64,000 nucleotides of DNA from Spirochaetia bacterium. GTDB lineage: Bacteria > Spirochaetota > Spirochaetia > SZUA-6 > Bin103. Location of the stretch: positions 704,001 to 768,000 of the forward strand of contig CBDAOI010000004.1 in assembly GCA_965198005.1 (NCBI GenBank), in the 5' to 3' direction. Positions 41,503-46,311 of the stretch are shown here, piece by piece; the stretch's first letter is position 1, and the number at the start of each line of letters is the position of its first letter. Made by a program: the position numbers and the translations under genes. The notes beneath the pieces were generated by a model. That model was not told the origin of the DNA. It was given only the letters and a program-made list of their open reading frames with translations, and did not search any database.

Positions 41503-42158
41503 AACCGGTCACTGCGCTGCCTGTCATCGTGACGCTTCATGACCATCCGTCGAACCCCAAGTGAGGCACGCTAGCATAGGCGCGGCGCGCCGTCAACGAC
41601 TCGTGGGGGTCACCGGGGTGAGCGAAGGTCACCGGCAACCGGTCACTGCGCTGACTGTCATCATGGCGTTTCATCACCGTTCCATCGGACCCCAAGCGAA
41701 GCAAGCTTGCTCTGGACGCGGCCACCCTGTCAACGACTCGGACGTCACCGACCGTGACCGCCAACCGGTCACTGCGCTGACTGTCGTCATGGCGCGTCAT
41801 CATCGATCGGTCGAACCCCAAGCGAGGCAAGCATGCGATGGACGCGACCACCCGGTCAACGACTCGGAGGTCTCCGAACGTCACCGGCCACCGGCCACTG
41901 CGCTGACTGTCATCATGGCGCGTCATCATCGATCCGTCGAACCCCACACGAGGCAAGCTTGCTATGGACGCGACCAGCCTGTCAACGACTCGGACGTCAC
42001 CGAACATCACCGGCCACCGGCCACTGCGCTGCCTGTCATCATGGCGCTTCATCATCGATCCGTCGAACCCAGGCGAGGCAAGCTTGCTATGGACGCGACC
42101 ACCCGGTCAACCACTCGGAGGTGACCGACCCTGACCGCCGAACCCCAGGCGAGGCAAG
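41503..42158. repeat. Tandem array of five ~126-bp units plus a partial sixth
   Basis: Units start at 41503, 41637, 41763, 41889, 42015 (period 134,126,126,126) with ACCGG(T/C)CACTGCGCTG...GTCAAC(G/C)ACTCG. Confidence 0.93.
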
Positions 42159-42279: not shown

Positions 42280-42582
42280 TCAGAGCGGCTTCCGCGGTGC
42301 TTCCAGCGTAGCCAACGCGGCCAGTACTGACTCGCCGCTGGCGTTGCCCGTGGCACCCAGCGCGGCAAGGCGGTCGAGGGCTTCCCATAGTGTCACTCCC
42401 AGTAGACCGGCAGCTTGCCGTAGGCTGACCTCCCCTACCCGGTGCTGGCCGGCGACGTAGGCTTCGAATCCCATTCGGGCCAGCTTGCGCAATGACTGTG
42501 CCTGCGCGGCGTGTTCCCGGTCGGCGACATACCGGACGGCTGTCTCAATTTCCTCGGTAATCCGTATGCTGCGAACACTCAT
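42280..42582 (-). CDS. UPF0175-like antitoxin/HTH protein
   Basis: SIRI.EE...SLRKL...GEVSLRQAA.LLG..LWE. Confidence 0.7.
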   Translation of the reverse strand: MSVRSIRITEEIETAVRYVADREHAAQAQSLRKLARMGFEAYVAGQHRVGEVSLRQAAGLLGVTLWEALDRLAALGATGNASGESVLAALATLEAPRKPL

Positions 42583-42585
42583 TGC

Positions 42586-42845
42586 TCAAGTCCTCTCATC
42601 AGGTGGCGAACGATCTGATATTCTTCGCTGCTGATGGACTGCTGAAGACGCTGCAGCAACCGCTCGGCCTCTTGTCGCGATGTTCGTGGCAATCAGTTCT
42701 GACGCCGCGCGACCAGAACCTTGGACCACGGCCTCCTTCACGACGGGCTCCGGGACGACCACCTTGAAGGCGTCGAGGACATGCTCCTTGTATCCCGCCT
42801 GCGTGATCTTGATCAGGCAATCTGCGTCCATCAGCACGTGAAGCA
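42586..42845 (-). pseudogene. PIN (DUF3368-like) toxin, internally deleted
   Basis: VLMDADCLIKIT...VVVPEPVVKEAV then loss of homology. Confidence 0.6.
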
Positions 42846-43099
42846 CGTAGTGCATTGTAGTCCGGGAAGGACAACGAGGCAAGGCCAGCCTGAGCGCCTA
42901 GTGGATCGGACGACGTTGAACGACCTCTCGTACGAGACCTCGGGTGGAGAGAAGGCACGCATGCCCTCCAGGCGGGCAGCGTCGAGGCGCCAGCGGTCCA
43001 CCTCGAGGCCGAGCTCCCTCATGCCCCGTTCCACGCAGTTGACCTGCACCTCGTAACCAATCAGAAGCGCCACGAAGATTTCGACAGTCGTACAGTGAT

Positions 43100-44518
43100 A
43101 TGGCCACTCAAGTTGCGCTCGCTGCCACCGCCGGGCACAAACGGTACATTGCGCGCGGCAAGAACCAGTTGCACACCATCTTCGAAAACCACTTCAGTGA
43201 GTTCTGCGATCAGTACGATGAGCGCTTCGCCCAGAAATACGGAAGGTTCCGTCTACGACGGATAGAAAGCGTCGCCGAACGGTTTGGCACGTGCGGCGAC
43301 TATCGACACGGGGTCGCCCGTATCCGCTGCACCAATCCCGAATGTGGCCACGACCACTTTCGGCCATTCAGCTGCTTAACGTAAGCGAAGCGTCGTCGGG
43401 TTCTACCTCTGCCCGTCGTGTAGCCAGAAACGGACGCTTCTATTTGCCGAGCATCTCACTGACGAGGTGCTTCTGAACTTGCCGCATCGCCAGTTCGTGT
43501 TCGCCCTGCCGAAGGCGCTGCGCATCTTCTTCCGCCACGACCGCCGGCTATTCGGCCATGTCTCGCGGCTGATCTACCACATCATCCAGGAGTTCTATCA
43601 TCAAGCTGCCGGTAGGCCGATTCGGACCGGTGTCGTAATCGCTCACCAGACATTCGGCGACATGTTGCGCTGGAACCCTCATTTCCACGCAATCGTCTTG
43701 GAAGGCGGTTTCGACGAGCAGGGTACCTTCGTGTACATACCGCTTGGCCACCTCCAGGCCATGACCGAGCTGCTGCGTCGCCGGGTGGTCGCGTTGCTGG
43801 TGGATCAGAAGCTACTCGACCGCCGCTTCGCGCGTAACATGCTCTCCTGGCGGCACTCCGGCTTCAGCATTGACAATTCAGTTCGCATCCTCGATCGAGG
43901 TGTACAGCGATCTCTGGCTGAATACGTCTCGCGCCCTGCGATCTCCGCGCAAGCGCTGGAACAAGATCCGCTATGAACCCTTCAAAGGTCGTGTGTTGTT
44001 CCACACCACATACTCGGACTATTTCAAGCGCTGGGAATGCCAGCGCCAGAAATCGTACACCTCTTCGACGCTCTGGACTTCCTTGCCGAGCTCGGAGATT
44101 GCCTGCGGCAACTCTACAGCACATCCCACCGGCGCGGGTGCAACTCATTCGTCGTTATGGTTTGTACTCCTCGCGGATCAAGGGTCACTGGACCCGCATG
44201 CCCTACGTTCTGCAGCGGGCGCCATCAGGTTGGACGAGCCAAGATGACGACACGGCCGCCACCGCATCCAACAGGGCCGCGAGCTCAGAGGTGCCTGCAA
44301 CGGAAACCGACGCTCCAGACGCGCGTGAACGTCGGCATGCGTGGGCCCGCCTGCTCGCTCGAGTCTACGAAATCGACCCACTTGTCTGCCCCCGCTGCGG
44401 AGCCCGGTTACGGGTGATTGCAGTGATCCGGAATCCCGTGCAAATCATAAAGATCCTGAACCACTTGGTGAGAACCGGTCGGGCACCGCCGGGGCTCGAT
44501 CCGACCACCCTCGACTGA
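43100..44518 (+). pseudogene. IS91-like Y2/HUH transposase with N-terminal zinc-binding domain, interrupted by four short hairpin insertions
   Basis: RC...CGH...PFSC, CPSC, HRQFVF.LP, HQTFG..L.WNPHFH, HSGFS, QHIP, IRRYGLY, WARLL.RVYEIDPL.CPRCG. Confidence 0.9.
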
Positions 44519-44782
44519 ACAGGTTACTCGGCGCTGAGCCGAACTGCCGCTCGGATTGCGGCGGCGGTTCCACCCAGGGCAAGGTGCGAACGCCCGCGTC
44601 GGCGGCAGTCTTCACCGAGCCTCATCGCAGCCCCTATGCGCGGCATTCTCACCGGCACGCGCCGGCGTCAGCTGTCGTTATCGCTGCTTCAGCCAGCCGT
44701 TCGCCATCGTGTCGATCAGTTACCATCCCGATGCTGCTCGCGGTGCTTTTACGCTCGTTCGCTCTCGATTACTCTTCCTATC

Positions 44783-45085
44783 ATTTGACAAGAACCATCA
44801 ACGCGTTCGCGAACTCCTCGCGCGCACCAAGACCGATCTGGTAACCACCTGGCCGGTCATGACCGAGACTTGTCACATGTTGGACTTCCGCGTGGATGCC
44901 CAGTTGAGCTTCCTGGAATGGATGCAGCCTGGCGCACTACAGCTGCACGAACTGAGAGCGACCGATCTGCAGAGGATCATCAGCTTGACCCGGGACTACC
45001 GCGATCGACCCATGGACCTTGCCGATGCGAGTTTGCTGGTGACCTCAGAAACACTCGATGTGCGGCAGATTATACGCGCCGACAA
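44783..45085 (+). pseudogene. VapC/PIN toxin lacking its N-terminus, abutting the probable IS91-like end (CTTCCTATC at ~44782)
   Basis: LVTTWPVMTETCHML, YRDRPMDLADASL. Confidence 0.8.
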
Positions 45086-45833: not shown

Positions 45834-45940
45834 TACGTCGGACAGAATGGAGCGCAATCTCTTGCGCAACTTAGGCGAGAGCTTGCGAATGTCTTTCAGC
45901 GCTTGCTTGGTGATCCGGACCTCGTAGGTAGCTCTTTCCC
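45834..45940 (-). pseudogene. RelE/YoeB-type toxin N-terminal fragment, cut at the IS21 end
   Basis: YEVRITKQALKDIRKLSPKLRKRLRSILSDV. Confidence 0.7.
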
Positions 45941-46189
45941 ATCAAACACCTCGTCGACTGAGTACGTCTGGCCGTTCGCTATTTCTTGGTCGGCTGCACG
46001 CACGCTTTCTTTGAGGCCCGCGACGGAGAGCAGCTCGAGCGTCTCGATGAGGTTCTCGTAGTCCACCTCCGACATCAGCACCGCACTCCCCTCGTTCGAG
46101 GTGATTCTGACCTGTCGATGCCCCCTGACCGTGTTCTTGATCAGATTGAGGAGCTCGGCTCGCGCGCTGCTCGCGGTGATCGTTTTCAT
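45896..46189 (-). CDS. Phd/YefM family antitoxin
   Basis: MKTITASSARAEL, AVLMSE.DYENLIETLELLS. Confidence 0.88.
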   Translation of the reverse strand: MKTITASSARAELLNLIKNTVRGHRQVRITSNEGSAVLMSEVDYENLIETLELLSVAGLKESVRAADQEIANGQTYSVDEVFDGKELPTRSGSPSKR

Positions 46190-46311
46190 TGCACGTACGC
46201 AGTTATGTACAGCGCTCGAGGCGGAGGCGGCGGCGTCGGCGACTTCAGTGTGCAAAAGGCCGGGCCGAATATGGTGTCAAGCGCACCCCAACCCGCTCAA
46301 CGCGCTGCGTC

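Follow-up and report, generated by a model that had tools for sequence, protein, structure and literature searches.

The window analysed here is a stretch of 64,000 nucleotides (nt) from an uncultured member of the Spirochaetia (G000:C4:704001-768000); positions given below are window coordinates unless a contig is named. At 43100-44518 on the plus strand it contains a transposase gene of the insertion sequence (IS) family IS91, identified from Pfam matches and translation, whose reading frame is broken at four sites by small pieces of extra DNA. Tiny hairpin inserts in genes of this kind point to a type of very small mobile DNA, or of insertion process, that has not been described. As an IS91-family (Y2 HUH, rolling-circle) transposase gene the copy is dead: three-frame translation splits this pseudogene into five pieces in frames 2, 0, 1, 0 and 2, and no single open reading frame spans it. 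Zn_Tnp_IS91 matches piece 1 (E 1.4e-5, 25.4 bits) slightly below the cut-off of 26.3 bits because the domain is split, and the rest of the domain (positions 58-90) lies on piece 2. The same piece matches Y2_Tnp with 41.8 bits against a cut-off of 20.9. Both domains bear out the identification as an IS91-like HUH transposase that had been made in an earlier, sequence-only reading of the window. The translation contains NPHFHAIV and RRYGLYSSR, with the HFH motif and paired tyrosines, which we take to be the catalytic motifs of the Y2 HUH domain. The pieces and the inserts between them are as follows.

43100..43375, plus strand: transposase piece 1, 92 codons from ATG to FSC, N-terminal zinc-binding domain (Pfam; tblastn with intact homologues)
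43376..43397, plus strand: insert 1, 22 nt replacing one Lys codon (net 19), contains GCGAAGC
43398..43946, plus strand: transposase piece 2, 183 codons from GFYLCPSC to PAIS, HFH motif (Pfam Y2_Tnp; translation)
43947..43956, plus strand: insert 2, GCGCAAGCGC, 10 nt
43957..44028, plus strand: transposase piece 3, 24 codons from WNKIRYEPF to YFK (translation)
44029..44048, plus strand: insert 3, CGCTGGGAATGCCAGCGCCA, exactly 20 nt, forming with the preceding G a stem of 7 base pairs (bp) and a 5-nt loop
44049..44093, plus strand: transposase piece 4, 15 codons, EIVHLFDALDFLAEL (translation)
44094..44116, plus strand: insert 4, 23 nt replacing the Thr codon ACC (net +20), hairpin GAG(A)TTGCC-TGC-GGCAACTC
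44117..44518, plus strand: transposase piece 5, 133 codons from QHIPP to the stop, RRYGLYSSR and C-terminal CPRCG zinc ribbon

Translated separately, the five pieces amount to 447 codons, and with two bridged codons this agrees with the protein of about 449 amino acids that had been expected once the inserts are left out. A homologue search with the longest piece returned 308 relatives, of which the best 120 were examined; most are about 445 amino acids long. Protein P0002 (405 amino acids, 94% identical) is unbroken at all four sites, where it reads FSCKGFY, AISLKKIRYEPF, YFKENVHLF and LAELTQHIPP. Protein P0001 is unbroken at sites 1-3 and has a frameshift at site 4 exactly like that of the window. 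The spacing at each site was measured by regular expressions over the best 120 of the 308 homologues and is nearly invariant: 1 residue at site 1 in 95 of 95 matching proteins, 3 residues at site 2 in 61 of 61, 3 residues at site 3 in 53 of 59 (4 residues in 5 of 59, with one false match), and 2 residues at site 4 in 79 of 80, the remaining protein, P0078, having a 14-residue in-frame insert. The protein is therefore continuous across four frame breaks, each at extra DNA, as the sequence-only reading had it, and the breaks are not ordinary indels of 1-2 nt, since intact homologues lack the extra DNA.

The boundaries were examined at the DNA level in an alignment (A1) of the window with six copies from sister genomes, and by comparison with contigs of four public sequencing runs from four studies (X1, X2, X4 and X15); contig depth and coverage gaps were uninformative on the absence of inserts. 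At site 1, the copy or fragment in G005 reads TGC AAA GGG. A paralogue in the window's own genome, G000 (C3:900037-900839, site G000:C3:900267, 69% nucleotide identity), carries 21 of the 22 nt of insert 1 in frame, as FSC-K-RKRSVV-GFY. Site 1 is thus an 18-nt translatable insert plus a one-base change that breaks the frame; the net 19 nt and the GCGAAGC motif first described are correct, but not the single event. A 19-nt stretch of insert 1 is identical letter for letter in the window copy and in this 69%-identical paralogue, at the same codon. Insert 2 is present in 5/5 genus copies that cover the site; its 10 nt at 43947-43956 stand as first placed, except that the boundary is ambiguous by a few bases, 13 nt replacing the single Leu codon of the relatives. 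Insert 3 corresponds to an exact 20-nt gap in the G001 copy (alignment A1), which confirms its extent at 44029-44048, and it is also missing from X1 and X15 contigs. For insert 4 the G001 copy has ACC in place of 44094-44116, in agreement with the net gain of about 20 nt proposed earlier; read on the minus strand, the insert has a three-base GCA loop closed by C-G. The X15 contig is without insert 3 and keeps inserts 2 and 4, and the insert-free ends TTCAAG/GAAAACGT and GAGCTC/ACCCAGCA are present in X4 and X2 contigs, so that the insert-free DNA which the earlier reading had proposed to look for was found among the contigs of X1, X2, X4 and X15. The four breaks are separate small insertions of 18 nt plus 1, 10, 20 and 20 nt, and they are real, discrete natural variants. 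None of their net lengths in the window (19, 10, 20 and 20 nt) is divisible by three.

Close copies differ in the inserts that they hold. P0002 has none, P0001 has insert 4, the G001 copy (L009) has inserts 1 and 2, the window has all four, the G003 copies L010 and L020 have inserts 2, 3 and 4 together with a 19-nt hairpin (insert 5), and the X15 contig has inserts 2 and 4 without 3. Inserts thus come and go independently among copies that are 90-97% identical, and the four-gamete test failed for the insert pairs 1/4 and 2/4. Three inserts of the G003 and G001 copies do not occur in the window: one of 8 nt, the 19-nt hairpin, and one of 23 nt that holds a 22-nt perfect palindrome (insert numbers above 4 refer to such inserts outside the window). 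The 19-nt insert, GGATTGCC-GCA-GGCAATCC, occurs in L010, L020 and L021. Its stem is that of insert 4 (core ATTGCC-TGC-GGCAA) with the loop reversed, and one and the same hairpin thus occupies two sites in opposite orientations. A search of 11 genus genomes found this 19-nt hairpin in IS copies alone. Among the five inserts of at least 19 nt, three have a perfect stem of at least 7 bp and one more has a bulged stem of 8 bp; about 5% of random 19-24-nt segments reach 6 bp.

Substitutions by codon position are 18:14:36 between L010 and L020 and 2:2:7 between the window and the G001 copy, an excess at third positions. The copies that share inserts are nevertheless 5'-truncated or carry a 45-nt deletion. 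Two histories would fit: divergence at a time when the copies were still active, with the inserts gained afterwards, or free recombination among IS copies. Several breakpoints lie near insert sites: L010 begins 3 nt past site 1 and L021 at the 3' edge of site 4, L024 stops no more than 5 nt past insert 3, and the deletion in G005 begins inside insert 2. Counted by eye over the sister copies L010, L020, L021, L024 and L011, roughly 3 of some 14 breakpoints are no farther than 3 nt from an insert site, a coincidence that is suggestive only.

The hairpin character of the inserts was scored by comparing the best perfect stem with those of 5000 equally long random segments of the genome, and by DNA folding z-scores of the inserts in context against 200 shuffles. 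Insert 3 has a best stem of 7 bp (P 0.007) and a fold z of -4.7, with 0 of 200 shuffles folding as well. Insert 4 has 5 bp (P 0.11; 8 bp with one bulge) and a z of -1.5 (20 of 200 shuffles). For insert 1 the best stem is 5 bp (P 0.10; z -0.2), for insert 2 it is 4 bp (P 0.08; z -0.3). Combined, the four stem values give a P of about 0.003. Clear above-chance palindromy is limited to insert 3 and is moderate in insert 4; inserts 1 and 2 have none. The sequence-only reading had described all four inserts as hairpins, which describes insert 3 well and insert 4 in part. Its observation that inserts 2 and 3 have GCGCTGG in common is correct. Palindromes of the form GCGCTGG-N3-6-CCAGCGC are frequent in the genomes of the family, with many loop sequences, and among the matches listed, loops like that of insert 3 occur in IS copies alone.

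The origin of the inserted DNA was sought locally and throughout the genome. The inserts are not copied from sequence within 300 nt (longest matches 7-8 nt, P 0.34-0.80) and none is a tandem duplication; local template switching, for which no template lies within 300 nt, is unsupported. A dispersed repeat as the source was rejected, since neither the inserts, sought in G000 with exact and near-exact matching, nor the hairpin of inserts 4 and 5, sought in 11 genus genomes, turned up outside IS copies. Relatives of insert 1 were also searched with two mismatches in 92 genomes of the order. The 10 matches all lie outside IS91-like genes and controls were about as frequent, so they are regarded as chance. 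Indels of at least 8 nt between G000 repeats that are at least 88% identical served as a control for the genome at large, and 3 of 289 contain a hairpin with a stem P of 0.01 or less. In a 120-kb stretch of G001 compared with G000, the hairpin-like members among 25 indels are one tandem repeat, one CCCGC-GTT-GCGGG, and otherwise only those of the present gene, outside which no indel reached that stem P. The synteny between G000 and G001 was dropped as a source of genome-wide indels, the region being a mosaic of mobile DNA that both genomes have but in which they are not collinear. Hairpin indels are not a general mutational habit of G000. Rfam gave no match at E<=5 in window 43000-44700 and none at E<=1 in L053, L058 and L060.

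Broken IS91-like genes of other Spirochaetia contain inserts of about 44 nt that share CCGCAGG with complementary bases on either side. A search pattern, GAGCA-N2-9-CCGCAGG-N2-9-GACCAG, in which pairing was not demanded, was run on 401 genomes of the class with the reversed pattern as control. It gave 27 matches in 20 of the 401 genomes, against 4 control matches. The full architecture is present in 19 of the 27; the other 8 look like chance. The consensus of this family of 42-45 nt is cCAGGnTGCATGG-[4 bp P1]-GAGCA-[P2 hairpin, C-GCA-G loop]-GACCA-[P1']. Among its 17 distinct sequences, 96% of the cells are paired and 7 of 11 pairs have changed on both sides; the 35 double-sided changes compare with 10 +/- 2.6 in shuffles (0 of 500), and sliding of the partner strand abolishes the signal. 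The family has a conserved two-helix structure. Seven of the 19 members lie inside IS91-like genes and one directly adjoins such a gene, the others being intergenic or in host genes. A covariance model, R1, was built from the 5' arm CCAGGNTGCATGG, helix P1, the GAGCA/GACCA internal loop and helix P2 with its GNA loop; in genome G135 five of its six matches are in IS91-like genes. The ends of L035 and L036, two identical intact IS copies, show no likeness to the 45-mer and contain no CCGCAGG.

A census by tblastn of one intact protein against 71 Spirochaetia IS91-like loci extended this picture. The 42-45-nt family occurs in both orientations, with loops GCA, GAA or GGA. A second family, CCCTAGGGCGGCAGC-[variable hairpin]-GCGAGAGCCCC, was found in the IS91-like genes L140 (G357:C21), L134 and L138; four of its inserts lie within the single gene of L140, and a 24-nt form occupies the same codon in three genomes. 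An AT-rich family in L135 (G449:C396) comprises inserts of 43-62 nt ending in GAA-loop hairpins, and the same gene has two 18-nt inserts that are hairpin only. Hairpin-only inserts of 18-29 nt occur in L059, L062, L063 and L135. Over the IS91-like genes of the Spirochaetia, insert sizes range from 18 to 62 nt. Many lengths are divisible by three (18, 24, 27, 39, 42 and 45), and these inserts are translated as peptide, such as PGCMGEQETAGFRPA in L074, WLHGRAGNRRFPTRP in L081 and the insert of P0078. The in-frame insert of the G000 paralogue has 18 nt, and those of L074, L081, L099 and P0078 have 42 or 45 nt; L042 is in frame, yet has a stop codon within one insert. Some positions are used repeatedly. 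LAEL/TQHIPP holds insert 4 in the window, a 45-nt insert in L074 and L099, an in-frame 42-nt insert in P0078 and a 27-nt hairpin in L062, while NPHFH/AIVLEGG holds 45-mers in L058, L102 and L103. Within IS91-like genes, three-base GCA loops with a C-G closing pair occur in insert 4 (minus strand) and in the 19-nt insert of the sister copies. The suggestion that the same hairpins be sought in other IS or intron genes was productive for the Spirochaetia IS91-like genes, where related inserts occur, but in the genomes searched the window's own hairpins are found only in IS copies.

One member of the 42-45-nt family was met in another kind of gene. In L105 (G135:C1:2172471-2172520) it lies in frame within an 852-codon HsdR-like frame that has domains of a type I restriction R-subunit, between HSDR_N and ResIII. 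In the window itself, the native sequence at 43751-43793 (codons for LQAMTEL), CCAGGC-CATGACCGAGC, resembles the 5' arm of the 45-mer and is the best, non-significant match of model R1 (E 0.18); the resemblance may be chance or a hint of origin.

The element to which the transposase gene belongs has the following recognisable extent.

42835..44788, plus strand: segment common to the window and the G001 copy, remnant of an IS91-like element (blastn)
44776..44788, plus strand: right end of the element (CTCTTCCTATCAT), which resembles the right end of L035 and L036, two identical intact relatives

Window and G001 copy are 100% identical over 42835-43033 and 96.8% over 43031-44788 (blastn). The window is without 234 nt at 43031-43033, upstream of the transposase start, which in the G001 copy lie between short CCA repeats; this difference is an ordinary deletion. 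Contigs of the other runs part from the window at 43031/43033 and at 44785-44789. The two copies were rejected as orthologues, as their flanks have nothing in common beyond 42835 and 44788. No second copy of the element that would fix its boundaries was found in G000, which has only the 69% paralogue and fragments. The element is flanked by a Phd/YefM antitoxin gene (45896-46255, minus strand, E 1.3e-13) and by a weak UPF0175-like frame (42280-42582, minus strand), and three further frames nearby have no Pfam match at E<=0.01. A tandem array of four 126-nt units (87% matches) lies at 41623-42128, and similar units occur at several places in the 120-kb G001 stretch. Elsewhere in G000, the gaps between the binding-protein and permease genes of paralogous peptide-type ATP-binding cassette (ABC) transporter operons contain stacks of different hairpins that resemble repetitive extragenic palindromes (REP), for example GGAGTCGC-GCA-GCGACTCC and CAATCGCCC-AAG-GGCGATTG. 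These stacks were seen at C3:888689, C4:1970663-1970714, C3:657732 and about 10 more places, and one of the operons has an additional 24 nt with the hairpin CAACGCC-GCA-GGCGTTG directly after a stop codon.

The inserts are real, discrete, polymorphic, locally non-templated and enriched in the IS91-like gene family. As they have no local copy, as hairpin indels are rare in other G000 repeats and as related inserts are found across the Spirochaetia, a dedicated process tied to this gene family is indicated. The same had been suggested in the sequence-only reading from four hairpins; the suggestion is retained here on the discrete, non-templated events and their tie to the gene family, and the four-hairpin premise is not. 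The explanation favoured, tentatively, is that very small hairpin elements have inserted into IS91-like genes at the DNA level. Hairpin-forming DNA of 18-62 nt, usually with stems of 5-9 bp and a three-base loop that is often G-N-A closed by C-G, would have entered the transposase genes in both orientations, with a few positions used repeatedly. Such ultra-small non-autonomous insertion elements or hairpin cassettes may integrate while the target is single-stranded, and may spread among IS copies via recombination or homing-like copying into the same site. Inserts divisible by three would be translated and could persist in open genes, and the out-of-frame inserts of the window would destroy the gene. 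The excess of the 45-mer in IS91-like genes looks like a target preference: with Y2_Tnp not found where the 45-mer lies outside IS91 genes, the 45-mer is not part of IS91 and can persist without it.

The IS91-type family is known to move via single-stranded intermediates. Two reports (PMC3201870, PMC13037366) describe d(GNA) loops with a C-G closing pair as hairpins of very high stability in DNA. C-GNA-G loops would fit a structure at the DNA rather than the RNA level, recognised or formed on single-stranded DNA (ssDNA). From this loop type and the known biology of the family we infer the link to ssDNA; the 10-20-nt inserts of the window may themselves be mobile, moved by an enzyme and with ssDNA as their presumed target. 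A bolder form of the explanation is possible but rather doubtful, namely that hairpin DNAs of 18-45 nt are a new class of ultra-small mobile elements parasitising a parasite, with the 20-nt inserts of the window as the smallest members. These would integrate, in either orientation, at a few preferred positions of IS91-type transposase genes during the rolling-circle ssDNA stage, home into the same site of other IS copies, and so tune or kill the transposase.

A number of results weigh against small mobile hairpin elements. No donor copies were found: each window insert is unique in G000 at two or fewer mismatches, except insert 1 in the paralogue, and the insert 4 hairpin is not dispersed in the genus (11 genomes searched). 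Sizes vary (8, 10 and 18-23 nt), and the inserts show neither common termini nor target duplications. The palindromy of inserts 1 and 2 does not exceed chance, and GCA and TGC loops are not over-represented in G000, with 20 each among 851 three-base-loop hairpins. The connection to the 42-45-nt family is loose. Model R1 finds no member in G000, G001, G003 and G005 (best E 0.59), nor, with filters off, any significant match in window 43000-44800, where the best (E 0.18) is native gene sequence; the insert 4 hairpin itself scores 3.7 bits (E 1.7). What the window inserts have in common with that family is only the host gene, one position and the loop type of insert 4. No mobilising enzyme is tied to the inserts, and neither Y1_Tnp nor Y2_Tnp consistently accompanies the 45-mer. 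The 90%-complete G000 gave no match to Y1_Tnp (PF01797), and of 5 genomes with the 45-mer only 2 gave one; for Y2_Tnp the search was negative in 6 of 6 genomes where the 45-mer lies outside IS91 genes (completeness 60-96%) and positive in G135, G056, G104 and G404. The sharing of inserts across backgrounds could also be obtained from plain recombination between IS copies.

Much of this would be accommodated if the inserts were scars, left where the Y2 transposase nicks or rolling-circle ssDNA replication stalls at preferred positions and where snap-back synthesis or capture of oligonucleotides then leaves a hairpin. We regard this as the next candidate after small hairpin elements, a serious one although not a probable one. 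Insert sequences that are unique and donorless, of variable size and without common termini are what it leads one to expect. The stems of inserts 3 and 5 extend 1-2 bp into the native flank, as expected from fold-back copying; different inserts return to the same positions; the breaks of truncated or deleted copies lie beside insert sites, although that coincidence was counted by eye (about 3 of about 14 within 3 nt); and within G000 the effect is restricted to IS91-like genes. Against scars, both arms of inserts 3, 4 and 7 are new DNA with no local template. A common source is needed for the 19-nt stretch of insert 1 in the 69% paralogue and for one hairpin at two sites. The 42-45-nt family, with its conserved arms and covarying stems, is in addition present in host and intergenic DNA of genomes without a detectable Y2 transposase. 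Small hairpin elements therefore remain the reading preferred here, followed by scars of nicking or repair and then, in this order, by decay, recoding and artefact.

Ordinary decay of a pseudogene by unrelated random insertions, with partial palindromy from chance or from GC-rich composition, is improbable. The individual stem values of inserts 1, 2 and 4 (P 0.08-0.11) would allow it, as would the 234-nt deletion upstream in the same copy and the ordinary deletions and truncations in sister copies. It does not account for the combined P of the four inserts, for four breaks out of four being insertions of at least 10 nt with no tandem duplication, for three more hairpin inserts in the sister copies, for the lack of such indels in other G000 repeats, or for the same gene family being full of structured inserts elsewhere. 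Reversible locks, by which the gene would still be used through precise excision, RNA processing or ribosomal bypass, had been raised in the sequence-only reading and appear very improbable. The third-position bias between insert-bearing copies (2:2:7; 18:14:36), the joint presence of insert-free and insert-bearing forms in metagenomes, and the lack of insert 3 in one RNA-library contig speak for them. The insert-sharing copies are, however, 5'-truncated or have a 45-nt deletion and are non-functional, so that the codon bias is more likely older than the inserts or due to recombination. Inserts 2 and 4 are still present in the RNA-library contig, and insert 3 is missing from a DNA-side X1 contig as well, which makes this difference a DNA variant. 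Four out-of-frame inserts would need four recoding events, Rfam offers no match (E<=5, 43000-44700), and many inserts of relatives are translated in frame, with lengths divisible by three, unlike a bypass element. An assembly or sequencing artefact is the remotest of the explanations. The genomes are metagenome-assembled and some relatives, such as L086, show 1-nt frameshifts typical of long-read assemblies, but the same inserts occur in the independent assemblies G000, G001 and G003, in the metagenome protein P0001 and in contigs from the runs of four studies.

Should the inserts prove mobile, few known mobile DNAs would be as small, and they would be the first found to prefer a rolling-circle transposase gene. 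They would also provide a natural handle on when and where elements of the IS91/ISCR type, important carriers of resistance genes elsewhere, are single-stranded. If they are scars, they would mark positions where the gene is broken by its own Y2 HUH transposase or by the replisome, which would be new information on a poorly understood transposition pathway. On either reading, annotation will label many spirochaete IS91-like genes as frameshifted for a systematic, non-random cause, and the covariance model of the 42-45-nt family can be used to find such inserts.

Several known systems are comparable. Rickettsia palindromic elements (RPEs), reportedly described by Ogata et al. in 2000, are said to be selfish palindromic DNA residing in frame within protein-coding genes. 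The likeness lies in small palindromic DNA inside open reading frames, with in-frame forms that are translated (here L074, L081, L099, P0078 and the G000 paralogue). RPEs are about 100-150 bp long, high-copy and found in many host genes, whereas the present inserts are of 18-62 nt, number 1-6 per genome and are concentrated in one transposase family; those of the window are, moreover, out of frame. The small dispersed repeats (SDR, about 21-27 nt) of cyanobacteria, reportedly studied by Elhai et al. in 2008, are likewise hairpin-forming, mobile-looking units of some 20-odd nt that insert into other repeats and genes. They form multi-copy families within a genome, unlike the window inserts, which have no other copies, and they belong to a different lineage. 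Yeast mitochondria are said to contain mobile GC clusters and translational-bypass 'byp' elements (reportedly described by Lang et al. in 2014), which are also hairpin inserts of tens of nt within coding sequence. They are organellar, numerous and skipped by the ribosome, and there is no sign of bypass here.

In comparison with miniature inverted-repeat transposable elements, which have terminal inverted repeats, a target-site duplication and a related autonomous element, the whole insert here is an inverted repeat, no target duplication is visible at inserts 3 and 4, and no parent element was found. REP sequences and REPINs are, according to three reports, mobilised by RAYT (TnpA-REP), a Y1 HUH enzyme (PMC3116915, PMC8266576, PMC3733652). 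REPs resemble the inserts as imperfect GC-rich hairpins of 20-40 nt that are thought to be recognised as ssDNA by a HUH enzyme, and G000 has REP-like stacks. They are, however, extragenic, present in tens to hundreds of copies and marked by a GTAG/CGTC tag, while the inserts are intragenic, nearly unique and untagged, and a RAYT-type gene (PF01797) was not found in the 90%-complete G000. Template-switch mutations make new inverted repeats in one replication-linked step, as stated in PMC5453318 and bioRxiv 10.1101/2021.04.15.439925. They do so by copying nearby sequence as its reverse complement; here there is no template within 300 nt, and both arms are new in inserts 3, 4 and 7. In the literature searched, as far as its text was available, neither hairpin micro-insertions of IS91-family genes nor elements of this kind in spirochaetes are reported. 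To the IS91/ISCR elements themselves the likeness is that of the host gene, which has both Pfam domains, the HFH motif and the paired tyrosines.

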